DNA from: Sphaeroforma arctica JP610 | Lineage: Eukaryota | DNA length: 41,456 nt | Direction: 5' to 3' | Assembly: GCF_001186125.1 (NCBI RefSeq) | Contig: NW_014039968.1 | Coordinates: 16,290-57,745, forward strand | Made by a program: the position numbers and the translations under genes | Notes under the pieces: model-generated | Told to the model about the DNA's origin: nothing | The model's input: the letters and a program-made list of their open reading frames with translations, nothing else | The model's database searches: none | In this document: positions 3,901 through 40,221 of the stretch, in pieces | Layout: every line of letters starts with the position of its first letter | Position numbering within the stretch: the stretch's first letter is position 1

Positions 3901-4426
3901 AATAATGTCGTATGGTCGACTTCGTTTCATACAGAGAGGTTTTTCAAGATGTCTAAGAGTCAGGCCGAAAACGCTCTACGGATCTACGAGAACTTTCTTT
4001 TGAATATAAGCGCGGTTTCTTCATTCTTGTTGATTGGCTCCCGAATCGACGTCAGCATGTCAGCGGAAATCCCAGCTTTGAAATCGGTACGTCAGCACCG
4101 AGTGTCAAATGTTAAACATAAAACATACATTGTGCAATGTTAGACATATATATCGATTGATCCCAGCTTTGAAATCGGTATGTCAGCACCGAGTGTTAAA
4201 TATTAGACGTAAAATATACATTGTGCAATGTTATACATATATATCGATTGTTCAACTGAATTTAGTTTGGAACGATTATGAAAGCAGGTTTTTTTTTAAA
4301 TTCGAACTCATAAATATAGGTCCGTACTTTTTATCTGTTGACATATTTACGTGCACTATTACACGGCCATGCCACATTGATGATCGATTTACAACGGAAG
4401 TAAGCACCTATTTACCCTTCACAGAA

Positions 4427-7600: not shown

Positions 7601-7871
7601 ACAAGCCATGGGAATGTATGACCAGAAGCAGCAGTACATGGGCATGGGTGGGGGTGGAGTACAGCAGCCAATGGGAGCGTACCAACATCAACCCTTGGGT
7701 ATGAATCCGCGACCAAATGGGATGCAGCAAATACAGAATGGCATGCAACAGATGCAAATGGGTCAAAACTATCAACAGCAAGACCAACAACCTATGCAGA
7801 ATAACAACAACAACTACCAGAACGATCCCTTCAGCGGCGCGGTGGCACGATCGAACAATCCGTTCGATTGA
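954..7871 (+). CDS. PICALM: ANTH-domain clathrin assembly protein (PICALM/AP180/YAP180 family), about 11 exons
   Basis: Phase-consistent GT-AG exons 954-1110, 2601-2819, 3112-3302, 3601-3712, 3935-4086, 4700-4830, 5255-5352, 5696-5857, 6234-6326, 6657-6793, 7425-7871. ANTH motifs: AVIKAT..PPKRKHINYL, NWIVAMKSLAVFHTLM, MSWFIRKYAMYLEEKV, GVITILERFFKM. Tail has clathrin box LLDFD, DLF/DPF, NPF motifs and is Q/N/M-rich. Confidence 0.93.
1489..1536. other. Scaffold gap (N run)
   Basis: Run of N in intron 1, next to (TA)n. Confidence 1.
1537..2200. repeat. (TA)n/(TG)n/(TATG)n microsatellite-rich tract
   Basis: Directly visible; produces spurious Y/I/V/C-rich ORFs. Confidence 0.95.
4069..4250 (+). 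repeat. Tandem duplication, 2 x 91 bp, spanning the exon 5 end and splice donor
   Basis: ATCCCAGCTTTGAAATCGGTA(C/T)GTCAGCACCGAG... at 4069 and 4160. Confidence 0.95.
4428..4676. repeat. (TA)n/(TG)n microsatellite tract
   Basis: Directly visible. Confidence 0.9.
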
Positions 7872-8077
7872 GATCGAGAAAAAAATGAGCAATTTGCGCC
7901 GTACAAACATTTTTGTAAATCCAGGGCAAGTAGATTACGTCTGCGATGAGAGCCTATCTGTGCTCGGGTTGAGATCGAGAAGAAAATGAGCAATTTGCGC
8001 TGTACAAACATTTTTGAAAATCCAGGGCAAGTAGATTACGTATGCGATGAGAGCCTATCTGTGCTCGGGTTGAGATC
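7868..8077 (+). repeat. Tandem duplication, 2 x 101 bp + 8 bp, starting at the PICALM stop codon
   Basis: TTGAGATC... at 7868, 7969 and 8070; few substitutions. Confidence 0.95.
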
Positions 8078-10601: not shown

Positions 10602-13600
10602 TTATGCCTCAGTGGTTGCTGTCTTGGCTTTGGGCTTCTTTTTCTTGTTCGTCTTTTTCTTCTTCACCTCCATCTCCTCGGCAAGCAGTGCCTTGAGCTC
10701 CTATACAAAATCACAAACGGGAATCAAAACGAATGTTTCGTGAGAATACCGGGACAAATATAATGGCATGCAGCCGTAAACAATTTCATATAATCTGACA
10801 GTAAAATTTCAATTGCGGCTATAATCAAGATATGTCCAAAAAAGAAAAACGCATTTGTCCAAAAAAGGAAATCGTGAAAATTTATCGCAAGCATACCTCC
10901 TTCTCGATAGACTTCTCGGATTTAACAGATTCAGCATCGAAAATAGATGGAGTCAAGCGAACAACACCGTTGCTTGTAAGCATAACTGTGTACTTGAACT
11001 GGGCAACCAAGGCACCTTCCTTGTCGCTCATGACAGGGTATGACTCTACTAATCCTTGCTTCTGACACTCGACGATACCCATTCGGGCCTTCTTCTCGTC
11101 GGTGCATGCTCTGTTAGCATATTGAGAATTTATCAAGATATCAGAAATGCGCATCGTTCGATGATGTCCTCTAGCCAAACATCATACAAGTCATATACAA
11201 CGACAGTTCAACTTTTGGCCCCGATCAGGCCATGTTCGAGTAGAACATGTTACCACTGGACCTTTCCAAGATAAAAAAATACTCATGTCACTTTACACCC
11301 TATCGCGCACAAACGCTGACCACACCATTCAAAACGCATAAACCACATTAATGTGCCCAAAAAAATACCTTAAAGAGAAAGGCATCGTTGTGAAGTTGTT
11401 GCTGATTTCACTGTACACGGCACGACTGGTAGCCATTCTGAGCGTGAATCGTGTGTTGGTCTTCTTGAACACGGTGGTACGTCCTCCCTTCTCCACTGGC
11501 TTGCCATCTCCAGTGCTCATAATGATGTCGATGGCGAACACATCTCCAACCTCAAATTCGGCCTTCTTTGTCTGTGCTCTTCGCTCGGCATCGGGCGCCT
11601 GTAGGTGTAGGATATTCCACAGAGAAAGTCTGCATGAATATCACACCAAACAAATATTGCGAATGCAAATGCTTCGTATATGTGGTGGTGCGCACCGTAT
11701 TAGACGAAAAAATCATCACCTATGTACTTCGCGCTTCATTCTTCACATTTGAGGGAATGACGGGGTCTCCAAATGCGTGTACGAAATACAACAAGTATCA
11801 GACTATAATATCAGCACATATAGCTCGAGCCATGACCTACTATGGGAATCACACAAGTACCTGCGGGATAACCTTAGCCTCTGCACCAGCTATCTCGTTC
11901 TTAGAGATTTGGTATGACACCATACCGGTAACGGCCTTGACACCGTACTCTTCAGCGACTTGATCGATTAGCTCGGTGCAGTCGAAGTTGGTCTTTTCTG
12001 TGGTCCATTCGAGAAGAGAGCAATAGGAAATTAAAATTTAAGTCGTTTTTAAACCAAACAATATTGAATCAATCAAAAAACACAAGATCAGCCGTTGTAT
12101 GTACAAAGTTACAAGGATATCACTGCCGCTGGCATTAACATACCAGTATTATTTGTCAGACTAAAAGAGCCATATGTAAGAGTCTACGGGTGAGGTATAC
12201 ACAACCCCTACGACCCATACAACTGATAATATCCAAATACATACCAGCCTTAATGGTTCGGAGCACAGCCTCGGAGGCATTGTATGCAGCCATAATCACA
12301 TCAGCAGCAGGGCCAGTGACAGGTGATGTAGCGTCCGCTCCTACAACGATAGTGGTACCAGCAAGAGCCATGAATCCGTCTACATGTGCTCCCATATCAC
12401 TGTTGAAAGATAAAAAGATATGAAGATGAGTCAAGTTTTCCCTTCAAAAAACAGCTGCGATACGCAAGCAGTAAATATAATATTCACATAAACTATAAGC
12501 GCGCTTTCCGCCATCGAGGTATTATACACAATTCATATTAACAACAATAAGACATTGTGAGACAATTTAAATCGTATAATCAACTAATTAAGCAGCGTAC
12601 CAAAAAAAACAGCATGTGTGTTATACTTGTAGAGATGTGAATGTTTATAGCGAACCACATGTTACCATGACGTGCTTGTCATCATTTAACTTGTACAATA
12701 ATATACTATTTGCAACGAATATATCCTACAACTGCCTATGGTTACTTTACCTACTTACATATTAGGACATTCACAACAAACTTACATCTTTACCACATCG
12801 CCGTCCTTTAGCGTGACGCCCTCGTCGGAGCGGAGGGGTGAGTAGTGACATACCATTTCATTCAGCGTAATGCAGACGGGGAAAGCAACACCTGATGTGA
12901 ATTAAGTTGTGATGACAATATAGTTAAGAAACGATTACAGAGTAATTCAAGAGTTTGAAGCTAGAGCAGGTTGACACAGAGTACATTAAAACGTGCATGT
13001 CCCATACTGTGCGTGAAAGCGCAAATAAATAGCTCACTGCTGTAGCCGACAAGCGGAAATCTAGACCTACGTCACTGCCCACTATGTGCACTAACATACA
13101 ATACCACTTGGCCATGTACATGTACAAGCGTGCATCTTCTCCGTCTCATATACTTCCTACGAAGGCTATCGGTTTAAATAACCAACTCAAAATAGAAATC
13201 TACGACCGCGTTACGCATAATTCAACCTGTGCTTCGCGCAATACCTAGTGTGATCTACCATAGAGTTGTGCAACAATTGGATAGAGTATGGTCTTAAAAC
13301 AATTGATGAGCTAACAGTGAAACAGTCACTTACCTCGAGGGATCTGCTTCGTCTTGCCACTCTCTTCGTCAGTGTAACCCTTCTTGTACACCTTCTGTGC
13401 CTCCTCGTTGACACGACTGTCCCCTACAGCACAGATTTCCACAACAGAGCATCCCTCCTTACACATGTCTACGACCTCCTTTAATACAACTGTTGGTGAC
13501 AAACATAAAACAGCGTTAATTTTAATACTACTTTACTTCGATAATCGACAACGTACTTGGAATTCATTTGTCATGTAAAATATGTCTTATAACAATTGAC

Positions 13601-24745: not shown

Positions 24746-24765
24746 NNNNNNNNNNNNNNNNNNNN
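24746..24765. other. Scaffold gap (N run)
   Basis: 20 N. Confidence 1.
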
Positions 24766-25261: not shown

Positions 25262-25401
25262 TCCCCTAATACTTAGCTCATTACCAAGGGCTAAAGCTAA
25301 ACTTAAAAAATTACATTGTGCAAATTTACTTTGAAATCTTACTTTTCTTTTACGTTAACTTATTGAAACCGATAGTCAGCCTGGTTAGTCTGACTTTTAC
25401 A
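25262..25401 (+). repeat. 140-bp inverted copy of 32064-32201, probably the 3' part of an element-1-family LTR
   Basis: Reverse-complement match with 4 substitutions and one 2-nt indel; ends ...GACTTTTACA. Confidence 0.85.
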
Positions 25402-26770
25402 CGCTTGTTAGAACTGCTTGAGAGTAGCTACAGAAGGCAAAGCTTTTCCAGGACGTGCAATCCCTCCCACCTGATACACAGCTCTAAAAGTCTCTCTCAG
25501 AGGTGGAGGGGTGTTATCTAACACTATCATCTTAACACGAGTTTTCATTGCTTCTACGGCTTGCACAATAACTTCATGCCATGATTCTGTCGGCGCTCTT
25601 CCGTTAACATTACAAACATGCCCGCCCTGATGAATGCCGAAGGACCACAACGAATCATTAATCCGTACAACAGTTTTTTTTATGGGCCTCGCTCATGTTT
25701 TAGAACCTAGTCAACATATCCTGGTAACTTTGATATTCCACATCCATGCCATAGGTCAATCAAATAACTGCCACACACAACCTGGACTGAGTGTCTCCGA
25801 TACGTTGCACTGGTTTATCCACTACTTTGGTGTTCTCCAGCTCAGAATACTCTTGTAAGCGTTTGACAATGGTTGCCACCTGGTATACCGTCATCAGTGG
25901 TATGGGATCTACTCGAGCCGTGCGATCTGACCAATTATTGGTCGCCATTTGACTCTCCAATGACTCCCATAAACCATTCTTTTGCTAGTAATGCTTCAAA
26001 ACTGGAGTTGCTGAATTCTTCAAAATATATCCTTTATTGTAATAGCCGGGCCTCCACATTAGACTCTATGTTATAAACGTACTCTTAATCAGTACGTAAA
26101 TTATAAACGTACTCTTAATAGTACGAGGAACTTAAGTTTCCTAAATGGTTTTTAACGGTTTTATTATTTAATACCTTTTCCATTTTACATATCAGATATT
26201 TGGACAAGGCCATTAAAAGGCCTCAGTAAAATAACAAACCTAAGATTTGGTCTAGTTCTATTAATAGAACTATATTTACTTTCCAAATCTATTTATATCT
26301 GAATACTTCGGTAGCGAAATGGCTCAACAGAACATAGGTTTCAAAGGACTATTAGCGTTGCTTAGCTTATCCTCCGTTCAGCCAACCAGATGTGCCAGTC
26401 CGATGAAGGCTAAGTCGGTAATTCTTGATAAGTGGCAAGTTATTAGTTAATGCATTAACTATGGACATCAAGAGTTTTTTTTTTGTTTTTCTTTTCTTTT
26501 TTCTAAAGACAGGATTTTACGAGTCTCTCGGATTCGCCCCAACGAAACATACCATAGTTTCTAATAGAGCGACAACGAAACATTAAAAAAAAAATCCCTT
26601 CGGCGAAAACAGTACTGAGAGGATTATATATAGGCAATGTCTCAGCCTCATAATCCCTCAGAGTATTGCTGTTTTCACGAGGTATACCCAACTTTACTAC
26701 AAGACTGATTTCGTTTATTTCTTTCAAACTTAACTATACTTGGACTTAACCTAAGCGTTTAATTACTCTA
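25402..26770 (-). mobile_element. Decayed 5' region (leader plus gag-like fragments) related to element 2
   Basis: Patchy inverted similarity to 32350-32900, e.g. GACTGGCACATCTGGTTGGCTG vs GACGGGCACATCTAGTTGGCTG at 32468. Broken ORFs 25960-25760 and 25650-25408. Confidence 0.5.
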
Positions 26771-26814
26771 AGGCGTTAATATCGCCTTGATAGACCGAAA
26801 CTTATAGCAACGAG

Positions 26815-27693
26815 TAACAGCGTCGTCATGACGTCTCCTGTAAACTCACTACCATTGTCGGTACATACTATAGCTGGCCAGCCGAAATCTGCGAAACACT
26901 TATAAATGCACTTAGCCACCGTTGGTGTTGATTTGTCTTTTAAAGGATATAATACAATATATCTTGAAGCGACATCAAAAACGTGGCAAACATACTTATC
27001 TTTCGTATGTTCAGACGTGGGTAGCTCAACCAAATCAATGATAACCCTGCGCCATGGATCGTCTTCTGATACACTCCGCAATGGGGCATATCCATAGCGC
27101 AACTTTGCAATCGTTACATTCGTGATACACCTGAGATATATATTACTTGAGCTTTGGGTGTACAATCCCGTACCTCTTGCAATCTTTCTCAGTCCTAACC
27201 TTATCCATGTGTTTGAGTGCATGATTCCGCGACATCAAAAACGTGGCAGACCTACTTATCTTTCGTGTGTTCAGACGTGGGTAGCTCAATCGAATTAATG
27301 ATAACCCTGCGCCATGGCTCGTCTTCTGATACACTCCGCAATGGGGCATATCCATAGCGCAACTTCGCAAACGTTACATTCGTGATACACCTGAGATATA
27401 TATTGCTTGAGCTTTGGGTGTACAACCCCGTACCTCTTGCAATCTTTCTCAGTCCTAACCTTATCCAAGTGTTTAAGTGCATGATTCTGTCTTAGCCACT
27501 TCAGAACGTCACCCTCCGTTGATCTTGCTATATCAAAATCTGGAGGTAAGGAATCCACTACTACTTCACCTGGACTCGAAGACTCGTCTCGTCCAATCTC
27601 GCCTGAAAGGTCGGCCGTGTGAATTCTACTAATGCTCTCTTTGTTCATTAGTTGAGTTACATGGTCGTATACATCTGGATAATCGTTCATCAA
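26815..27693 (-). pseudogene. Integrase of element 1 (HHCC plus rve core), internally duplicated and truncated before the catalytic E
   Basis: NHALKHLDK..ECNVC; PWRRVIIDLVELP; FDVASRY; FGWPAIVCTDNGSEF; similarity ends shortly after. Confidence 0.88.
26969..27487. repeat. Tandem duplication, 2 x 260 bp, inside the integrase
   Basis: GCGACATCAAAAACGTGGCA... at 26969 and 27229. Confidence 0.95.
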
Positions 27694-29582
27694 CTGTTTG
27701 AGTAGCCTGGTTTCGGCCTCGTATGCAGTTTCTCTGTCAGAACGTATCTTTTGTAAAATGCCTTCGCTAGTGATGAGTTCTTCTTTGCATCCTTTGGATC
27801 ACATTTTACCTCGGTAACGCATACTGCAGGTGCGTGTGTCGCCCCAGCCTCTCGTTGAGACTTAGGTGTCAAGAGTGGAATCTTGGATTCGTCGACCTTA
27901 CGTTTGAAGGTGACGGATGGTGTCCATTTGGTTGTACCAACTGGACCTATTCGACATATTATTGTCTGTCGCCAAGGAGTCTTCTGAACTGTACGGGTAC
28001 CCTGGTAGAGAAAAGTATCTACCTCTCTATCCACATATATGGGCTCACGTTGTATCATCGATATCAACTGTGGTAGCCATTTATCTGAATGTCTTAGGGG
28101 ACAACACAACGTGGTGGTAGCATCTTGTATATGAACATAATATAGCAACTGTGGTATCAACAACCGCGGTAGATTCGCCCATGCGTTCTCATCGGATAAA
28201 TCGATTTGAAACCCATCACCGCCTGGGTGTTCCAGAGTCCGGTATCGCGGCAGTTGCGCAATATGATGTACTGCAAACATATCGATGGTATGTGGTCCAT
28301 GTATGTTGTCTGCAATTTTAAACCACCTAGGATTGGCCTTCCAATCCGTAGCTAGTAATTCCCGAACCATCGTGTTGATATCCGGTACGAAGCATGACAG
28401 CATATCCGGGAAATGATTGTGTATACCCGGTATATGTGTAATGCTAAAAGAAAACTTTGCGATCGTATCGTGCCATTGACTGATCATTTGTGAATTTGGT
28501 TTCATATCTTTTAAATGTTGCAACGATTTCTGATCACACAGTACATTATAATGTGTACCGTGTAAGCAATCCTTAAAATGAGTGAGTGCGGTCACAATAG
28601 CTAATAGCTCTTGCTGCACAGTCGGATAATTGATTTGTGACGAGTTCATAGCTCTGCTAAAGAACTGCACGTATCTCGGTTTCCCGTCAATCATTTGATA
28701 CAGAACACCTCCCAACGCCATATCGGATGCGTCTGTAGCCACCATGAAGGGTACTCTATCTTGTGGTGGCTGGACTACTGGGGCTTGTTTAACCACTGTT
28801 TTGAGCTGCTTAAAGGCATCATCACAGTCCTTGGTCCACAATACTCCTAATTTGCCCTTGTGACATCTCAAATGTCCGAAAGGCTTCAAGTAGCTTGCCA
28901 GGTGTGGGACTCCATCTGACAGGAAGTTAACGAAACCGCACATGCTGTTCACGTCCTTGCCTGTAGTGGGGGATCTCCAGTCTAGTAAGTGTTCTACCTT
29001 TCCGGGGTCAATCATTATGCCATCCCCAGATACACGATAGCCCAACAGCTGTATCTCGTTCACTCCGAAATGACATTTCTTGCTGATGATTTTAAACCTG
29101 TGTTTGTTAAGCATGGCCAGTACCTCTTTTATAACCCTGTCATGCTCCTCTTTGGTTTTAGTAAACACGACAATGTCATCGATATATACCAGTACATTGT
29201 CCATATCCCTAAACAGGTCTTGCATGATTTGCTGAAAGAAGGCTGGTAGCATATGTAAACCAAAAGGGGCTCCTTTAAAAGAATACTGCTGGCCATCCCA
29301 AGTGAAGGTGAAATACTTCCGATGTGGTTTGTATATTTTCATTTGGTGGTAGCCTTGCTTCAGATCGATGGTTGAAAATATTTTCGCACCTTCCGTTCTT
29401 CTCAGCAATTCATTGAATCTTGGTAAATGGAAATTATGTGTGGGTAAAAGAGCGTTTATAGGACTCGTATCCAAACACACGCGATTAACGTGCCATAGGA
29501 GTTGAACTGGTCGACAGCTAAGAGTGCTAAGTTGACAGGAGTGGGCTCGTGGTTGACTGCAATTACTCCGTCTTCCAACCAT
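27690..29582 (-). CDS. pol fragment of element 1: RT + RNase H + DIRS/Dam-like N6-adenine methyltransferase in one open frame
   Basis: YIDD, TDASD and NHFPDMLS run in frame into DWKANPRWF..GPHTIDMFA..AQLPRY..DGF..AWANLPRLLIPQLL..CPLRHSDKWLPQL. Confidence 0.88.
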   Translation of the reverse strand: MVGRRSNCSQPRAHSCQLSTLSCRPVQLLWHVNRVCLDTSPINALLPTHNFHLPRFNELLRRTEGAKIFSTIDLKQGYHQMKIYKPHRKYFTFTWDGQQYSFKGAPFGLHMLPAFFQQIMQDLFRDMDNVLVYIDDIVVFTKTKEEHDRVIKEVLAMLNKHRFKIISKKCHFGVNEIQLLGYRVSGDGIMIDPGKVEHLLDWRSPTTGKDVNSMCGFVNFLSDGVPHLASYLKPFGHLRCHKGKLGVLWTKDCDDAFKQLKTVVKQAPVVQPPQDRVPFMVATDASDMALGGVLYQMIDGKPRYVQFFSRAMNSSQINYPTVQQELLAIVTALTHFKDCLHGTHYNVLCDQKSLQHLKDMKPNSQMISQWHDTIAKFSFSITHIPGIHNHFPDMLSCFVPDINTMVRELLATDWKANPRWFKIADNIHGPHTIDMFAVHHIAQLPRYRTLEHPGGDGFQIDLSDENAWANLPRLLIPQLLYYVHIQDATTTLCCPLRHSDKWLPQLISMIQREPIYVDREVDTFLYQGTRTVQKTPWRQTIICRIGPVGTTKWTPSVTFKRKVDESKIPLLTPKSQREAGATHAPAVCVTEVKCDPKDAKKNSSLAKAFYKRYVLTEKLHTRPKPGYSNS

Positions 29583-32201
29583 GCCTTGACTTGTTCTCGT
29601 ACCACCTGTTCATGACGCCACGCTACATAATTTCGCGTTGGGCATTTCAACTTCGAAAAGTCTACTTTTGTCAAATCTAAGCTCACGTATCCGTTGTTGA
29701 ATTTAAACTGAGCCGAGTCTCTTTATCTTGTCGTTCTCAAAGATAAGATCCTTCAGCTTTTCTGTTAATTGGGGTATCATTTCCTTCACAGTCTTAGAAG
29801 GCTTGTGTACAGGCTTCAGCAGATTGTCATCTGACTGATCCTTCTGTGGGTCAATGATAGTAGATTGTCATACCTAACGATAACAGGTCTCCCATCCCCA
29901 CTATTGAATCATAAGCTGGCGAAGTGTTACAGACTACTGCCCTAGTCACTGTGGTCCGTTGATCTGTTAGGGTAAACCTCAAATCTACGGTCATGTCACG
30001 ACACGTAATCTCCCTTTCGTCAGCCAATTTTAACATAGTAGGTTCTGATTTACGAGTTACATCAGTTATCTTACAAAATCTCGATGATAGACATGAAATT
30101 TGCGAGACCGGATCCAACAACGCTTTTATTTCATGCCCATTAACTCGTACATCCAGGATGACGCGCTCATCTTGCGGTGCATCCTTTTTGTTTCAGTGCC
30201 AAGATCCGGTCAGATTGTCACTTAACTTCTACTTTCGGTTGCACCTTACATATATGTTTGTGGTAACCTCCAGTCCCTTCACAGTCTTCACACTTCGCGA
30301 TAAAATGTTCACACTTTTCTGCGTGCCTGCCATTCCAGCGTCCATTCGGCTCATGTTGGGTCATGCGCCAGCTGCAATCTGTCTCGGTACAGTCCTTGGT
30401 CTCCTTATACTTAGGTTTAGGAGGATCAGCTGCCTAATTAAATCTGTTGCCCGAAGTCCCGTGAGTGTTGACATTGTTCTTTTGACCATCAGTACCTTGC
30501 ACTTGCTTGTTCTTATGGCCTCCTCTGGCACCACCTTTGTTCCCTTTGTTATTTCTCGTACCCGTATGAGAGTCTCGACCGTTACCTGGTCCTCCATTCG
30601 TGCTGGGTACCGTCTTCTTAGTAGACGGTGCGAATTTCTCCACAGAACTCGGACGTTTCGAAAACGTCTGGTCTGCTCTCGAATAAAATTCAGTCCAAGT
30701 CAAGTCGGCAAGTTTCATGATGCCGTAAGTTGGCCTTCAATTGAAATCTCACGCACTTTGTCTGGAAAAGATTGGTGCATATCTGCGTACAACACTTCTT
30801 GGTCTTTTCTATGTAGAGCCGACCAGAAAATAGTTTGTACCCATAACACACACATACTCAACTTGTCTCGCAACATTTCTTGTGTTTGAGCATGTGTTCT
30901 GTGAGTGTCCAGGACCATTATCGATACCAATAGTTCCGGTCTAGGATCGGTTGAAAATAGATGGACTATCATTTCGCTCTGCTCCTTCCACGTCTTTAGC
31001 TTTGTTATAGCAGCTTTAGCCTACTCCAACTTAGTATAATTATAAGATGACGGCTTAAAACTCTGTTGCGCAGCCTCGAACCATAGGATCTTACTTAAAT
31101 TTGCAGGGAGCATAATTTGACCAAATTCTTTCAAAGATCGCGACAATAATGCTAAGTTACTCGTATCGATAGGGTCCTAACGGTCTTTTCGATCGGGACG
31201 ATATGTAGTGGATAACTTAATATGTCCTTGACGAACTTTTTACTGTCCACTGTCTTCTCGGCGTGTATGATGCGTAGCTCCGTATCGATCTTGGATTGAA
31301 AGTGTTTCGTCATTGTCCTTCTCAAACTGGCTTGCTCTAACCTTCCTTGACCCATTGCTAGTTTAGCATTCGAGCAGTGAAATCAGTAATATTCTTGTCA
31401 CTCTCTGAAATCTCATCAAATTGCGTGTCCATCTCCTTCAGACCATGTAGTTACTGATTGTCTCCATCGTCACCGTCATCCTTTCGTGCCTTCTTGCGAG
31501 TCGTCATCGTCGTCGATGTCCTCGACTGCTTGGCCGATGGCGGCAAGTAATCTGGTCCTGACGAGTCTGGTTCTTCAATATGGGCGACGATTGATCCTCG
31601 TCTCCGCTAGAACTCTTAGATTTCTCTTTATTCCTAAAATTCAGCCGCCAATTTTCGCAGTTCGCGCAGGTAGTCATCTGTGTCCCGATCGTCTGAATCT
31701 TCTCCTCCAGAGTCCGTCCCCTGTTCTAAGTCAGATTTTAAGGCTCCTTTACCGTGTGGTATTAGGTCTCCCGGTCCCGATTCTATCTGCTTGTGCTTCG
31801 GTATCTCGTCAGCTGACTCCATCGGTGGATTTTTCTTCTCCTTGGATTTCTTTGATTTCTTGGGCTTGGTCTTGCCCGTTGTAACTTCATCAAAGGAATC
31901 CGCGGGTAAAGCGTGTGCCATCATACTTGTCACAGCTTCATCCGCTTGTGGGTCAGGTGCCAACGAGGGTTCAAAAGGCGTAACCTTCGGCTGGTTCTTT
32001 GATGCCTTCGCTTTCCCTTTACTCTTCGTCATATTCTTCCGATAGTGTATAAACTTAAAAATATGTAAAAGTCAGACTAACCAGGCTGACTATCGGTTTC
32101 AATAAGTTAACGTAAAAGAAAAGTAAGATTTCAAAGTAAATTTGCACAATGTAATTTTAAGTCTAGCTTCAGCCCTTGGTAATGAGCTAAAGATTAGGGG
32201 A

Positions 32202-32435
32202 TGTAAGACTGAGACTATTGTCTTTATGGCTCCGCTCTAATCACTCAATACTTCGGTCTAGATATATTCGGTGTCAGTAACTAAGATCAGATTATTATCT
32301 TCTATACCATGTCATGCCTCGAATTTACCTTCCAATCGCAAATAAATATAACTCTAAGTCCAACTTAAAAGAAATAAAAGAAATCAAAAACACCATGATG
32401 GTACAGTTAAATGACTGTACCTATACCCCATCACA
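32202..32435 (+). repeat. Candidate 5' LTR of element 2
   Basis: TGTAA...TCACA with two AATAAA, followed by TGGTACCTAGC (possible tRNA PBS). No matching 3' LTR found. Confidence 0.35.
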
Positions 32436-34661
32436 TGGTACCTAGCTCTCATCCCATTGAAGGCATAGACGGGCACATCTAGTTGGCTGGCTAGGGGGGA
32501 TCATTTTTATACCCCATTTCTCAGTAGGCTATCTCGCGCTAAGAGTATTTGGTAAAACAACATGTGTCATCAAGTGTCAATATCACTTGAGACTCGCCCA
32601 GTGTTGTGTCCCAATATTCTGATGGAAAACACATCAGTGTAGAAAAACCATCATATCAATATCAGCAGGGTCTCTGGCCTCGGTCGTATACAATTGTAAT
32701 TCCAAATAGCCAAATTAGATTATTTGTTTGTTTGTTTTCTGTAAATTCAATAAATCTATAATTAGATTATTTGATTATTATACAGATACAATTATCTACA
32801 ATTGCGTTTCAACCTATGCCAGGTTTCCTAATAGTAATAGCGTTTAAACGTTATTACGTTTATTATATACGTTATCATGTGCTTTTACTATAGGAACCCG
32901 CTGATTTACAAGCGTAAGAAAAGAGGATTATGACCTAATTATGGAGGTTGCTACAGCTGCAATTCTATGAAGCACCGACAGTACCAGTGTCCGGTGCTGA
33001 AGAGAAAGCGAGCGAGTGAGCGCAAGGAAGGAGGCCATGGAAAAGGGGGTAAGGGGCTAGGAAGAAGCTTGCCACAAGGTCAGCCAAGATTTCCTCCCAT
33101 GCAGAATATGGGAGTAGTATGCATTTATACCTTTACTCCTACGTCTCAATCAGGACAAGGGGGAGTGGCAATCAGAGCACCTTCAGTGGCAGCAGCCCAG
33201 CCCGTGGGAACGGGAGTAAATGGAGGTGCTGTGATTCAGCAACCCATAATGCCACAGACGTCGGTTTACACATCGGGCCCAGCGATGGCCTATGGTGACC
33301 CAGGCATGGCAGGGACAGTCCTTCCAGTAGCAACCTTAGCGACAGCTAGTGTTGATTAACAACAATTCAACTACGAGCAGTCTCATACAGCATGGGGCAA
33401 GAGAGGGGGCCTACTGATATTGGGCGGTAGTGCAGGCATGGGTGAGAGGAATCAAAATAAAGATTGATGTGGACACGGGACCTGTTCCCACATTAGTTTT
33501 TCATGATTTTGCACACCAATTGGTACTACCAATAGTGCCCTATGAGGGCATGTCACTTTCTGGAATTGGGGCGTTGGAAACATTGCGACTTACAGGGTCA
33601 TTGAGTGTAACACTGGTAATAGAAATATGGCACAAACAAGCGAGGGTGTTACTCAATGACTGACTGGTGGTACAATCACTCCCCTATGGTACTTCGATAC
33701 TAGTGGGATATAAAACACTACAGTGTTATGGACTTATTGTGAAAAGAGCATACCTTAACAGTGGTTCCTAGGATGGAGTTGGAAGCAGCAATGAGACAAC
33801 TTCTTCAGACGTCAAGGCCCATAGGAGTGGTGTATGTGCCTAGAGAAGCAGCTTTCCAGCGTATGGTGAAGGAGGTGCGTACGGCGACCGATCCAATCTA
33901 TCTGCCCAAGCTCATCGACCATACGTCATGAGCTGAAATCGAGCATCAGACAAAAGAGAACTTTGGGGCGTTGCCGGGCCATGAAATGGGAAACTTTGAG
34001 GATATATACCAATTAGCCGCGACTGTGAATACGTCTTCTCTGGCAATAGAAACCCTCATCAAATACATACAGACGGTGGCGTACAATGTATTATATCTTA
34101 AGTTCGTGGATGTGCCGCCTCTCGTCATTCAGGACATACCACAGGCAGTGCTGAAGGCCATTTATTACATGGACAAAGATCTCACAAAGGTATCAATAGT
34201 GAAGGAGAAGATGGATGCCTGGGAGGCGGCAGGAATAATTGGTCGGGTAACAGACCAAGGTTGGTGCTCGGCGACACACTCGGTTTTTAAGAAACAGGAG
34301 TGGTCCCGGTGAATGCCAACGGATGGAGAACGTGTATCAACTTAAAGTTGATCAATGACCAACTCCAAGCAACCCCATACTACATTCCAACGGAGAAGCA
34401 ATATTTAGCGAACGTCAAGGGAAAGGACTGGATTACGACGGCAGACCTTGGCCAGAGCTTTTGCCAGATCCTCGTGGCTCCAAATCCTACGAAGCACTTG
34501 ACATTGAATACTCCATGGGGCTTCAACTTTTTCATAGACATGCCTTTTGGCCTGAAGGAAGCCTCATGGAGAATGCATCAAGCGCTAGGGTTGGTGTTTG
34601 GGTTTCTGAAAGCAGTCATGTGGTACATTGATGGCCTATTGTTTGGTCACAATGACCCGAA

Positions 34662-35141
34662 GGAACATGTATGTCTACTAAAATTTGTACACGCTGGCAA
34701 AGCAAGGCGAGTACAGTTGCTGTTGAACAAATGTACGCTTGCCGCATACCGGAAGGCAGTAGTACTACTTGGGAGGTCAGTGGAATGGCGAGGCAGCACA
34801 ATTACCGATGAACGTCTGCGACATTTGTTGAATCATAGCGCTCCTACTTCACAAGATTTGGCTCGATCGTAGTATCATACCATGGCCTGGTGGAGTGATA
34901 CATTCCCAACGGAACATTGGGTATGTCTACTGAAATTTGTACACGCTTGCAAAGCAAGGCGAGTACAGTTGCTGTTCAACAAATGTACGCTTGCCGCATA
35001 ACGGAAGGCAGTAGTACTACTTGGGAGGTCGGTGGAATGGCGAGGCAGCACAATTACCGATGAACGTCTGCGAGATTTTTTGAATCATAGCGCTCCTACT
35101 TCACAAGATTTGGCTCGGTCGTAGTATCATACCATGGCCTG
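34662..35141. repeat. Tandem duplication of ~230 bp (period ~250) inside the RT of element 2
   Basis: GGAACAT..GTATGTCTACT.AAATTTGTACACGC...ACCATGGCCTG at 34662 and 34911. Confidence 0.93.
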
Positions 35142-35754
35142 TTCACCAGGGTCATGGCCTGTATAGTGGCCCTTCTTAAAAAAGGATGTAAAGTTCATCT
35201 GGACGAAATAAGACCAGAGGGTATTCGAGGAATGTGCATACTTGCTTCGGCACTGTGCCACTCTGGTGGAGCCTCTTATGTCCGAGCAGTTGTGTGTGTT
35301 TTCGGATGCATGTAACTTTGTTGGTGTTGGTGGAGTATGCATGGTGATGACGAGATGGGCAATATCTCCCAGTCTCATTTGCGGGATCTAAATTCGATTC
35401 CGCCCAGATTCCTTACCACGTTCTGGACATAGATCTGCTTGGCACAGTCTTTGTGGTACAGAAGAATGTCGCTGTCATCAGAAGAGCCATTCCAGCAACA
35501 TTCTTGTATACCGACCATCAACCACTTATAGCTATCTGTGCGCGAGAACTACATGCGTTCTCCAACACAGTAAGGGAACGTCGACAGCAACGATGCCATG
35601 GCATACTGCGTGATTTTGACATCCAGGTGGTCTATGTTAAAGGCAGAGAATCCAGTGGCAGATGTCATGTCACGGCTGTGTACAGGCATTGATCCGATTA
35701 TGCGGGTCAAAAGGGGGCGTACAGAGCTCAGGGTCACTTTTGCAGCCTAAGTAC

Positions 35755-36150
35755 ACAGGCTGTCTGCATCCTGGTTTCGGGTGCTAGAGAAGCGGTATGA
35801 CCTCCATACCATAGATGTCTTCGCTCTACCGGGCAACCAGCAGCTTAGTGCCTATTGTTCACCAACACTGGAAGGAGGAGTGTTCGTCGGTTTTGGGGGC
35901 GACACCACAGTCAACTGGTACATGAACCCCCGTTCTCGTTGCTCCCGGAAGTCCTTAGTAAGGTGCAACGTGACCGGGCCTGTGTGACAATAGTGGTGCC
36001 GTACTGGCCAACAGCTGGGTGGTTCCCTTTGTTTGTGTCCCGATTAGCGGACGTGCCGGTGTACATACCGGCCACGGCGAGCACCTACTTGTGTCATGGT
36101 CATATGGTACAACAAGCGCCCCGATTTGCATTGGTAGGGGCGAGGTTAGG
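35755..36150 (+). pseudogene. DIRS/Dam-like N6-adenine DNA methyltransferase domain of element 2
   Basis: RLSASWFRVLEKRYDLHTIDVFALPGNQQLSAYCS...WYMN/PPFSLLPEVLSKVQRDRACVTIVVPYWPTAGWFPLF. NPPF is split by one missing C in the run at 35927-35931. Confidence 0.88.
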
Positions 36151-39100
36151 GCCCAGAACAGACTTTAGACTGTCAGAGGATGTGTGGGTACGCTTTAATG
36201 CGCCGCTTGAGCCACCAATAGCAGATACGGCGGTTCTCCCTGCAGCTCTGGCCCCGAATTCTTGGGCAGGACGGACACCCACGTATAAGCAACGTACGAT
36301 GCTCGCTTCGGTTCAGACGCCGGTACCACAAGTGGTGGGCTGCTTAGCGGCGTCATTGGACAGGGCCGAGCAGGCCTGTGGCGTTTCCTCACCAAATGTT
36401 GATCCATGGACCACCTTACATGCGTGTCCCGTCCGAAGTATATGGGGCGTCCTCCTTACGGCAGCACAAGTAGTCAGAGTTCTTCGATACACGCATGCGC
36501 TCTACTCCCATTGTGGCATGCGCAGGCTAGAACTCCTTATTGATTCTCTATTTGGCTGGGAGGGGCTCCGAGATCAGGTTCGCGTAGTCCATTTGGTCAG
36601 CGAGTCCTGCCAGCGGCATGGGCTGATCGGACATATATCGAAGGGCTTGCTTCAGCAGACACTAGTGCTAGTTACTGGGCGCTCGGAAGGATGGAACATG
36701 GGCTTTGTTCATTTCTCAAAGGCCACATGCGGGGAGTGCATGTTGTTGTGCGCGACCAACATGTTCTCAAACTTATTGGTCGTACGTGTGTACACTAAGA
36801 AGGGACCCCGGGCTAAGACCACAGCGGCGGTGATAGCATTTGTGCAAGAGCAAATCCTCCCCTGGGGCGTTCCCAAGGTCGCACAAGGGGATCCAGATTC
36901 GGTCTTCGGCACCCAATTCAGCACGTGGTGTTTTGCCAGGGGAATAACGTATCGCCCCTGTACAGTCGCACACCACGAAGGTAATGGCCGTGTGGAGCGC
37001 TTTATTCGTACTTTTACTGAGTGGCTTGCACGATGTGCGGATCAGCATTCCTTGGATGAATGGGTATCCAACATCCACGATTGTGCTGCCAGTTACAACT
37101 CGACGGCGCGGTCGGGCAAGATGATGAGTCCTCATTTTATCCATACGAGTCGAATATATGACGGCATGCAAAGGCTGGCATTGGAGGACAAATAAGGTAA
37201 CATGATCCTCACGGAGCGCGGGTTCTTGGCGGTTCCTCATGACAAAGTCGGCCATCGGCTAAATATTCGTGCGCAGCAGTCCGCACAGGTGGCGGCCGAC
37301 AAACGCCGCATGAAACTTCCAGCTTTCCGGTAAGGGCTCGGGTGAGGTTCTGGCGCGATGTCGGTCAACATAGGCTTACGCGCATGTGGTACGATCCGGC
37401 CGTGGTCCAAGCAGTTACACATGTGAACATGCACAAGCTACGCTATAATGGCAAAACATATACGGTGCACAGGACTTATGTGGACGCATATCACGATTCG
37501 GTGGACCCTGGTACACCAGAGACACCGGCAGCACAACGGGTCACACTGGTGGGCACGTATGCGGCCTGATTACTATGGGTCTCGGCATTTCGCCTGCTAC
37601 CTCATACTGAACGTCATACCTTGTCCAGACTTATGAAGACGAACTTGATGGCCCAGAAGTGGTTAGACCGATCGCAGTCGGCTTAAGAACAGTTCCAGGG
37701 AGTTATTGATAACTGTGTAGATGCAGGTGACAATACTCTGCTCGAATATAGGGACACCATTGAATTGATCAGCAATCATTTGCTTAGTGATGTGGCAGCT
37801 GCCTGTCTGGTGAACCACATTCAAGAATCTCCTTTGGTGCATGCAATCATAATGGGCAATGATCCGGGTTTTAGGACGCATATGCGAGTTGCGTCTGAAG
37901 AAGACGCCGAATTCTAACTATTAAAGTGGCAGATTGATATATATGTGTACATACCTATAGCAGTTAGGGTGACTGGGCCGCACTGGTTGAAGGTCTCTTA
38001 ACAGCATTTGATGGCTACGTTACCTACTGGTTGGCACTTCGTAGGTCTATCCGTATTCGCTGTGTTGCCCAAGTATATGGCTCGACGTATGAATCGCATT
38101 GACTGTGCTGGGGATTGCGTATGGGAGGTGGTATGCTGCGGCAGGTCGCCCTCACTACTGTCACTTACAAGGGCAGGTAGTTCGTCCGCGCTATCCACGT
38201 ACCCCTCGTCCGAAGACCAGTCGGTGTTAGGCACGCCACTTGTAATAGATCGGAACTCAGGATGTGTGAGGGTTGGATATTAGGAAGCATTAGCATAAGG
38301 TATTGCCCGTATATGGTGCTACGTAGGGGCATACGCACGTCTGGATCGTCGAGATATGCGACCCTAAGCTGAGGGTGTGGTAGGTTCTCGTCTGTGATTG
38401 AGGGTGCTGATTGAGTCTGGGGATAGGGTGTGTACATGTTTAGGAAGTGGGGGCTGGCATCCGATCAGCGTTACGTGGACTTTCTTTGTCTGTGCCCTCC
38501 CATTCTATGAAGGGTGGTGCAGGATGGCTAATTCTGGTCATACCAGTTCAGATGCTACAGTTAGTTGTCAGCTGGTGTGGAATAGTGTGTACGCAATATG
38601 AGTGTTTTGCAGGGGATGTGCAGTTATGATTTTGCAGAGGTTTGGGCTGGGGCATTTTGCATTGGGACTTTGTGTTTTTCTCAGTCCCAAGACTCCAGCC
38701 TCCTTTTGCTTGTTTGTTTTTTTATGAATGTTTGAAAATATGTCACGACTGGCCAATTTCACGGTGTCAAAGGGATAGTGCATCCGCGTTAGAACTGGCG
38801 AATTTCTTATACGAGCACTTATCCAACTTTGCACATGAAGTGACCCCACTTCGGACGTTGTCTAATCTTAAGCCAAAGGAACCGATTGGGGATCTTTGGA
38901 AATCAGAACACCAATTGGCACGGGAGCAGATGAGGGAGGTAGTTGTGTCGGCAGTTGTGTTCGTCTGAACTTTCCGGTCGAAGGTGTGCCACTTGAGTTG
39001 GAAACGGACGCAAATGATTAAGACATTGGTGGGGGGTTGTTTCATCGACGGACACAAACGTCACCTGATTTTCTTCTCGACGACGCTTAACCAGGCATAG

Positions 39101-39713
39101 CAAACGTATGCAACACCGATGAAAGAAACTGTGAGCACTTGCCTATGTATTGGTTCATTTTCATGACCACCTCTGATTGGACAGCGATTTACCGTACACA
39201 CGGATCATAAGGCACTCATATACATGAATATTTGTTGAACTGAAATGGTATGCTGCAGCGTTGGCATCACATCATTGCAAAATTCAATTCTACTATTACA
39301 GGGAACGATATCAACTACCCAGCTGTGCTCTACACATCGTGTAGGAATTTATAACCAGATTTCTCTGACCAAGATCAGAAGCATTTTGAGCCTAACGACG
39401 ACGATGCTTTTACATCGAGTCACAACGCTCAACTCCGACAATACTGATCGTATGAAAAGTATGTCTAAATATGACTAGAACAAGTAAAATACATACATAA
39501 ACCCACCATGGTGTCATAAACATAAGGTACTATGCAAGGTGTTGGCTGACTAGGTGTCTGCATCTTCTCCTTCGGGCTATAAGGTCAATCCATCGTTTTG
39601 GTGCGTCTGGGTCTGGAGGTATCTGTATGTGAGGAAGCTAGTACACTTTATCAAGAGAACTGGACATAACCAGAGATGACTAGACGTGCGAAGTACCCTA
39701 CTAGGCAGATTTT

Positions 39714-39818: not shown

Positions 39819-40221
39819 GTGGAATAGAGAATTTAATGAGAAGAAAGTGATGACTCATCCGAAACCATAAAGACGGGTATCACATGACCCGATGGTAGAG
39901 AAGGTCTCGTTCCGCATAGGATCGTGATTAATAAAAATAACAGGCGCGTCATTTCCAATGGCACTTCTGACTGAGTTCACTTGTTTCAGACTTAACACTA
40001 TTTACTAAGCGTTCCTCGGAGTGGAATAGAGAATTTGATGAGAAGAAAGTGATGACTCATCCGAAACCATAAAGTCGGGTATCACATTACCCGATGGTAG
40101 AGAAGGTCTCGTTCCGCATAGGATCGTGATTAATAAAAATAACAGGCGCGCCATTTCCAATGGCACTTCTGACTGAGTTCACTTGTTTCAGACTTAACAC
40201 TATTTACTAAGCGTTCGTCGG
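39819..40221. repeat. Tandem duplication, 2 x ~202 bp
   Basis: GTGGAATAGAGAATTT... at 39819 and 40021; about 5 substitutions. Confidence 0.95.

Follow-up and report, generated by a model that had tools for sequence, protein, structure and literature searches.

Ty3/Gypsy 'DAM-LTR' retrotransposons, which carry a Dam domain, include an ichthyosporean lineage that has been defined with Sphaeroforma arctica named among its hosts (Fernandez-Moreno et al., bioRxiv 10.64898/2026.05.21.726589). In S. arctica the copies of these elements show raised 6mA and raised expression, a relation that is correlation only, and representative DAM-LTR domains expressed in dam- E. coli gave no rise in 6mA (same preprint). 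The main text of the preprint makes no mention of PCIF1 or of priming, and the position of the domain in the ichthyosporean lineage is not put in words there. The methyltransferases of DIRS elements have been placed in the PCIF1 clade, and the DIRS-type domains judged likely to be inactive, in passages of Iyer et al. (2016, PMC4738411).

Two head-to-head elements

The window, that is the whole stretch of 41,456 nucleotides that was analysed, contains two head-to-head elements, element 1 on the - strand and element 2 on the + strand, each with a domain of about 140 amino acids between RNase H and a DDE integrase. They are read here as dead copies of Ty3/Gypsy DAM-LTR retrotransposons of S. arctica, with a probability of about 0.95. 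Both copies are decayed, and the catalytic motif IV is broken in each. The architecture, the ichthyosporean lineage and the host species have all been described in the 2026 preprint, and the novelty suggested by the first-pass annotation is therefore not supported. An exon of a host gene in the window is 100% identical over 77 amino acids to SARC_07436 of S. arctica JP610.

The only terminus seen is a likely 5' LTR of element 1, TG...CA, of about 814-815 bp (32064..32877, - strand); both elements are truncated. We infer both LTR ends, the outer one included: the CA end is the same base at which a second copy (25262-25401) stops matching, and a contig joint that extends to ~32873, together with unique contigs starting at 32784-32834, is in keeping with the TG at 32877. 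A 31-nt leader that has no TGG tRNA-type primer site leads to the gag ATG (32030..32063). The gag region (30250..32032), labelled from its position, is broken in translation by stops and frameshifts, has a Cys/His-rich end and gave no gag match in Pfam. It is followed by an aspartic protease remnant (29863..30171; gag-asp_proteas E 4.6e-5; tblastn to the relative P0001 35%, E 1e-14) and by a reverse transcriptase (RT) with YIDD and RNase H (RH) (28452..29456; RVT_1 E 2.3e-28, RT_RNaseH_2 E 4.3e-29), for which Ty3 RT/RH is the best PDB sequence match (E 4e-59). In the ORF 29609-27690 (-) the order is RVT_1, RT_RNaseH (E 1e-26) or RNaseH_2, and then the methyltransferase-fold domain. This Dam/PCIF1-type N6-adenine domain, identified from its relatives, an AF2 model and a motif tally, reads WKANPRWF..DMFA..WANLPR..WLPQL at 28361-27942 (-), after RNase H, and is 67-69% identical to the domains of P0001 and P0002. 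DMFA is intact. Motif IV, for which the first-pass annotation gave the signature N/F-P-P-F/W, is degenerate and reads NLPR, the sole such case among 163 aligned domains.

The linker, H2C2 and integrase core of element 1 lie in shifted frames (26806..27798, - strand; rve E 4.7e-12, H2C2 weak at E 0.09) and include a 260-bp tandem duplication at 26969-27487. The integrase is cut at ~26805 by another repeat, with loose contig ends at 26804 and 26807, and its remainder was not found in the window. The second copy of the LTR 3' end, at 25262..25401 on the + strand and thus in the opposite orientation, is 95.7% identical over 140 bp.

Element 2 begins with a zinc knuckle from the end of gag (weak, zf-CCHC E 0.15) and a protease remnant (32946..33760, + strand); the gag upstream is missing and was likely cut by element 1. 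Its RT is degenerate, with YIDG, and together with RNase H covers 34291..35692 (RT at 34291-34872, RVT_1 E 1.8e-5; RNase H at 35351-35692, RT_RNaseH E 8.7e-6), with a 252-bp tandem duplication at 34669-35141 inside this region. The methyltransferase-fold domain (35757..36157, from tblastx and alignment) has an intact DVFA. A frameshift near 35926 falls inside its NPPF, so that 'WYMNPPFSLL', earlier given as one reading, does not lie in a single frame. The letters at the frameshift are identical in contigs of all four sequencing runs, and an assembly error is therefore rejected as its origin. H2C2, a degenerate DDE integrase core and an SH3-like tail seen by eye follow at 36473..37570 (Integrase_H2C2 E 0.0027; rve_3 E 0.0005), the H2C2 and rve_3 matches being in the same ORF as the second half of the domain.

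Together the elements have the Ty3/Gypsy pol order protease-RT-RH-integrase, with an HHCC and DDE integrase; in element 2 the first catalytic Asp is lost, its position reading Gly in the alignment. The protease announced for the locus stands as a remnant in element 1, while that of element 2 is seen by eye only. A Dam-type domain is placed inside the pol of an integrase-encoding element by Pfam, profile and fold matches. Element 2 is a very divergent, apparently low-copy relic and may fall outside the families of the preprint. When longer relatives of its domain-integrase ORF were sought, 8000 scored proteins gave a single match, to 11% of the query, in a protein from a fish. Contig depth, which is not taken here as a copy number, showed a low-copy pattern in three runs and run X1 did not fit.

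The domain, its relatives and the phylogenetic trees

The domain has the fold of a SAM-dependent N6-adenine methyltransferase. The AF2 model of the element 1 domain (pLDDT 93.6) is a Rossmann-type SAM-methyltransferase fold, in line with what had been anticipated from the motifs. The best solved match is PCIF1/CAPAM (Z 11.2, rmsd 2.7, 132 residues aligned); T4 Dam scores lower (Z 8.2, rmsd 2.9, 108 aligned). The five highest places in Foldseek all go to PCIF1 chains, and PCIF1 also ranks first in a second structural search (VIA), followed by rRNA adenine methylases. A PDB sequence search with the domain profile gave no matches at E<=10. The top ESM Atlas clusters (0.93) are unnamed and one cluster (0.90) has Dam in 14% of its members, which is a lead only.

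The shared extra domain at the same position in pol, the starting observation of the first-pass annotation, is confirmed by tblastx (28-36% identity between the two domains, E 2e-7), in an output that also held many spurious low-complexity rows. The domain profile finds 5624 proteins at E<=0.001 (980 at E<=1e-10), and the similarity is therefore not due to chance; a chance motif is excluded by the profile and fold matches alike. Of the 163 aligned domains, 117 have NPPW or NPPF as motif IV, 14 have FPPF, 4 have HPPW and 3 have CPPW, the last being the form in P0001. An intact motif IV (N/D-P-P-Y/F/W) is absent from both window copies and present in P0002, P0004 and P0006. The retention of DxFA and NPP[WF] in most relatives in this alignment is what SAM binding and catalysis would call for. 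Two intact relatives share 69% identity in the domain, compared with 62% in RT, 70% in RH and 33% in the linker, and by this measure the domain appears to be as conserved as RT.

Most of the domain-profile matches are of the DIRS1-like kind. RT, RH, Dam and integrase are encoded in one frame in P0001 and P0002, and in 10 of 28 profile matches chosen by rank and length. In the RT tree of 35 rows, a subset of a 57-row tree from which P0040 and 21 DIRS-like rows were dropped, element 1 forms a clade (97/97) with the Abeoforma whisleri proteins P0004 and P0006, and a 95/95 split puts both elements on the integrase-bearing side. All tree rows come from a profile built on the window elements, a biased sampling, and the RT tree is free of named references for Gypsy or DIRS. 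The branch of element 2 is long and lies outside the core clade (best identity 27%), and joining it to that clade is not rejected (p-AU 0.18). In the domain tree, made with 70 of the 163 domains, both window domains and the Abeoforma proteins fall in one starred (99) clade. The domain order of the relatives, the trees and the fold matches support two proposals made from the letters of this DNA, an N6-adenine methyltransferase-type domain between RNase H and DDE integrase in a Gypsy pol and an old, diversified lineage of such elements.

Among the best 80 of 175 metagenome loci an integrase-like match was present in 5, and only one of the 80 (L001, without termini) had the order RH-domain-integrase. 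None of 37 and none of 53 candidate viral contigs were confirmed. CrRem1-like LTR elements of Chlamydomonas were reportedly described earlier as carrying an N6-methyltransferase.

The 140-bp inverted repeat that flanks element 1 could be taken to mean that this element is DIRS-like, or a DIRS/Gypsy hybrid with inverted terminal repeats and an integrase that is a nested piece, and a Gypsy-domain element with DIRS-like repeats has been described in Klebsormidium. We consider this very improbable. The relatives encode RT, RH, Dam and integrase in one reading frame, which argues that the integrase is not from a separate nested insertion. We reject a nested DIRS on the basis of these relatives and of the RT tree, in which the element 1 RT stays apart from the DIRS-like RTs (joining rejected, p-AU 0.024, 35-row subset). 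No tyrosine recombinase match was found within either element with three partial queries (the best in the window, E 0.005, is at 9.7-9.9 kb), and self-BLAST gave no internal complementary region. The 140-bp repeat has the CA end of an LTR, a separate repeat sits between it and the cut integrase, and past 25402 a contig runs on into other sequence in all four sequencing runs. The 140-bp copy is thus likely a second LTR piece from another insertion and not a true terminal repeat.

Possible self-priming of element 1 and possible roles of the domain

In the leader, nt 32061-32050 have their complement in a segment of the LTR about 100 nt upstream. The match is 12 nt, all Watson-Crick, to the second LTR copy (1 of 500 shuffles) and 11 nt with one G-U to the last 141 bp of the element's own LTR (28 of 500 shuffles); against the whole 815-bp LTR it is not significant (59 of 150 shuffles). 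The complementarity suggests a Tf1-like self-priming of element 1.

For intact copies we give even odds to a mechanism in which the domain methylates the element's own replication intermediate. As a portion of Pol the domain would be carried in the particle, where it would put 6mA on the RNA-DNA hybrid or the cDNA. The mark would then be maintained by host AMT1, and new insertions would gain the active-chromatin mark of the host. Should 6mA indeed be written by intact domains, these transposons turn an activating mark of the host to their use rather than flee a silencing one, an idea already in the 2026 preprint. The mimicry of active 6mA chromatin put forward in the first-pass annotation is the same model and has correlative support there, but DNA methylation by the domain was not borne out in dam- E. 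coli, the very assay that had been proposed and is now published with a negative result for representative DAM-LTR domains. Raised 6mA could also follow from transcription or insertion site instead of from the domain. The closest solved fold, that of an RNA cap methylase, and the judgement of inactivity in the passages of Iyer et al. also speak against the mechanism.

That judgement and the negative E. coli assay both favour a domain that is catalytically inert and retained in Pol for binding SAM or nucleic acid or for a structural role, with 6mA coming from host AMT1 alone. The variation of motif IV, including the CPPW of P0001, points the same way. We regard an inert domain as possible if doubtful, as most relatives have retained DxFA and NPP[WF] and the domain is as well conserved as RT. 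The domain might instead act on RNA like PCIF1/CAPAM, methylating or holding an adenosine near the capped 5' end of its own transcript for stability or priming. PCIF1 leads both structural searches with rRNA adenine methylases next, weak Pfam PCIF1_WW matches occur in a piece of element 2 (E 0.04) and in 5 of 47 DIRS-like relatives, and Iyer et al., in the passages cited, have the DIRS methyltransferases in the PCIF1 clade. Activity on RNA would also account for the negative DNA assay, and the 5' end of element 1 may itself serve in priming. It is nevertheless unlikely. PCIF1 may owe its first rank to the lack of solved structures among close relatives; in sequence the domain is nearer to phage Dam (PF05869) and phrog_111, and this domain of 140 amino acids is without the helical domain of PCIF1, which helps to bind the cap. 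For self-priming, the strong match is confined to the second LTR copy, and it comes from the single family that was testable. The fuller version, that the 'Dam' domain of retrotransposons is a PCIF1/CAPAM-like RNA enzyme and not a DNA methylase, marking or gripping the capped 5' end that serves the element 1 family as a tRNA-free primer, is quite improbable. If true, it would explain why DIRS and DAM-LTR elements alike have retained the domain, and also why the DNA assays failed.

Comparison with known systems

The Pfam check suggested for the domain gave a divided result: neither window domain matches Dam, but intact relatives do. For phage Dam (PF05869 / phrog_111), P0004 (40.4 bits), P0006 (43.5) and P0011 (53.8) are above the Pfam cut-off of 28.1 bits, and P0001 (22.9) and P0002 (26.2) below it. 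PCIF1/CAPAM (PDB 6IRX, 6IRW), a cap-specific adenosine N6-methyltransferase, is the closest solved fold to the window domain and shares an NPPF-type motif IV; identity is 12-15%, and the window domain is without a WW or helical domain and is embedded in a retrotransposon Pol.

DIRS1-like retrotransposons, as far as described in parts of PMC3266345, share the order RT-RH-methyltransferase and the same methyltransferase family. They differ from the window elements, which have a DDE integrase, a Gypsy-side RT, likely direct LTRs and a protease, and in which a tyrosine recombinase was not found. The self-priming Gypsy elements Tf1 and Sushi, in the sections of PMC6317226 that treat them, resemble element 1 in having no tRNA-type primer site and a short complement between leader and LTR. 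In self-priming of the Tf1 type the primer site pairs with the first ~11 nt of the transcript, and the complement in element 1 is a candidate for such a site. Unlike Tf1 and Sushi, the window elements have no chromodomain (no match in the scanned window ORFs, P0001 or P0002).

With the ichthyosporean DAM-LTR lineage the elements share the Ty3/Gypsy organisation, the Dam domain, the lack of a chromodomain, the host S. arctica and the Abeoforma whisleri/Sphaeroforma/Pirum clade, on a comparison with the preprint's description; the window copies differ in being decayed. The window contributes two dead examples, a domain that appears as conserved as RT, and two leads beyond the main text of the preprint: a nearest solved fold that is an RNA cap methylase, which points towards RNA as substrate, and what may be a signature of self-priming in element 1, which has a 12-nt match instead of a tRNA primer site.

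Layout of the two relics

The window holds two decayed Ty3/Gypsy relics arranged head to head. Element 1 (- strand) comprises, in order, a likely LTR, a broken gag, a protease (Pfam, E 5e-5), a single 639-aa ORF (29609-27690) encoding RT (E 2e-28), RNase H (E 4e-29) and the extra domain, and finally H2C2 and rve (E 5e-12) in frames shifted relative to that ORF. The integrase is broken at about 26805, with loose contig ends on either side. The interruption, 25402-26804, is a separate, much-repeated element; its broken ORFs (25411-25692 and 25763-25984, - strand) have no Pfam match and bear, by eye, what we take to be a faint resemblance to nucleotide cyclase motifs. Element 2 (+ strand) consists of a zinc knuckle, a degenerate RT (Pfam, E 2e-5), RNase H (E 9e-6), the extra domain and an integrase with weak Pfam matches to H2C2 and rve_3.

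The motifs quoted in the first-pass annotation are present in both elements, except that the catalytic motif IV reads NLPR in element 1 and that NPPF in element 2 is interrupted by a frameshift. The contigs of all four read sets compared showed zero differences from element 2 at this position, and the frameshift is therefore real. Judged from sequence, neither copy can be active.

Tandem duplications with two copies (91-260 bp, 92-98% identity) are found at five sites, 26969-27487, 34669-35141, 39819-40221, 7868-8069 and 4069-4250, two of them within coding regions of elements 1 and 2. Downstream of element 2 lie a long, degenerate reading frame containing an acidic stretch, LPALVSDSSE (37600-38750, -), and, from a third element of Gypsy-like type, the remains of an RNase H (38929-39444, +; 28% to the intact relative P0001, E 2e-5). 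The genes at 948-22462 belong to the host and code for an ANTH/ENTH protein, a protein with a peptidase M24 domain (SARC_07436), a PDZ protein with few introns and an aspartic protease; the exon at 11368-11598 and SARC_07436 of Sphaeroforma arctica JP610 share 100% identity. Scaffold gaps are at 1489-1536 and 24746-24765.

Relatives of the extra domain

Scanned alone, neither window domain matched Pfam Dam. Two intact relatives, P0001 and P0002 (64-66% identity over the region concerned), carry RT, RH, a sub-threshold Dam match and integrase in one frame, which in P0001 includes a protease; the position first assigned to the domain, between RNase H and integrase, is upheld. The domain profile found 5624 proteins at E<=0.001. 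RT-RH-Dam-integrase within one ORF was seen in 10 of 28 matches picked by rank and length, several of which exceed the Pfam Dam cut-off. The 47 mid-length matches scanned were mostly RT-(RH)-Dam without integrase, the DIRS pattern. Motif IV is NPPW in 61, NPPF in 56 and FPPF in 14 of 163 aligned domains, among which NLPR is unique to element 1. P0001 and P0002 share 69% identity in the domain, compared with 62% in RT, 70% in RH, 53% in rve and 33% in the linker, which points to selection on the domain.

Other placements occur. Among the best 80 of 175 metagenome loci, the domain precedes RT in an integrase-bearing element (L015) or follows the integrase (L027, L028, L032). Proteins P0014, P0075 and P0076 combine the RH-Dam-IN order with a chromodomain, and the DIRS-like P0122 and P0132 have weak Tudor-domain matches directly after Dam (E 0.001-0.006).

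The best match of element 1 in a PDB sequence search was Ty3 RT/RH. In RT trees, whose rows, like those of the domain tree, all come from a profile built on elements 1 and 2, named references being absent, both elements fall on the integrase-bearing side (95/95), and element 1 groups in one clade with proteins of Abeoforma whisleri (97/97). Forced placement of the element 1 RT in the DIRS-like group was rejected (p-AU 0.024). The element 2 RT is a long branch (nearest row 27% identity; forced into the core clade, p-AU 0.18) and its position is unsure. In the domain tree a single starred clade contains both window domains and Abeoforma proteins.

The methylase-carrying Gypsy feature is real and was correctly read. 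Its supposed novelty did not survive: LTR retrotransposons with a Dam-type domain (DAM-LTRs) have been described in the same lineage and host, the main text of the preprint by Fernandez-Moreno et al. reporting among them an ichthyosporean lineage, present in Pirum, Abeoforma and S. arctica, whose elements are organised like conventional Ty3/Gypsy elements and lack a chromodomain (bioRxiv 10.64898/2026.05.21.726589). The families of elements 1 and 2 may be in its supplement. DIRS MTases were known earlier, according to passages of PMC3266345 and PMC5890265.

Fold and possible activity

The domain has the predicted methyltransferase fold: an AlphaFold2 model (72-row alignment, pLDDT 93.6) matches PCIF1 and Dam. 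Foldseek ranked PCIF1/CAPAM first (E 8e-4, TM 0.63-0.70), and a wide structure search gave Z 11.2 for PCIF1 (rmsd 2.7, 132 aligned), 8.4-9.6 for RNA adenine methylases and 8.2 for T4 and E. coli Dam.

In intact copies the domain would, most likely, enter the particle as part of Pol and there methylate adenines in either the cDNA or the RNA-DNA hybrid, and the host would retain the mark after integration. We infer every step, the support being correlative, and put the probability at about 0.5. The preprint reports higher 6mA and expression on DAM-LTR elements and proposes that the domain marks reverse-transcription intermediates, with upkeep by AMT1 (bioRxiv 10.64898/2026.05.21.726589). It also found no 6mA gain with DAM-LTR domains in dam- E. 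coli, and Iyer et al., in the relevant part of PMC4738411, assigned DIRS MTases to the PCIF1 clade and judged them likely inactive; that the domain is an inert binding module is a possible but clearly less probable alternative. Slightly more doubtful still is a PCIF1-like role on RNA, which the structural ranking favours only weakly, because close relatives have no solved structure. Action on the RNA cap, coupled to tRNA-free priming, is improbable. Neither PCIF1 nor priming is mentioned in the preprint main text, and among the titles and abstracts listed in literature searches none linked them to DAM-LTRs.

Repeat and possible self-priming of element 1

A 140-bp inverted repeat (95.7%) lies on either side of element 1 (25262-25401 and 32064-32201) and terminates in CA, 31 nt ahead of the gag ATG. 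It first suggested a DIRS-like hybrid, a reading made very improbable by the CA end, by the different sequence that continues in another contig at the end of the second copy, and by the separate repeat between this copy and the cut integrase. The preferred reading makes the second copy the 3' end of another LTR in opposite orientation, its end positions being inferred rather than fixed by reads.

After the LTR, the leader of element 1 has no tRNA-type (TGG) primer site. In tests picked post hoc, 12 nt of the leader (32061-32050) were complementary to the second LTR copy about 100 nt inside it (25298-25309; 1 of 500 shuffles), and 11 nt, with one G-U pair, to the element's own LTR (32165-32155; 28 of 500 shuffles when limited to its last 141 bp, 59 of 150 over its full length). 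This complement suggests Tf1-like self-priming; a leader/LTR match in an element without a tRNA-type site is similar to the self-priming of Tf1/Sushi elements as outlined in part of PMC6317226.
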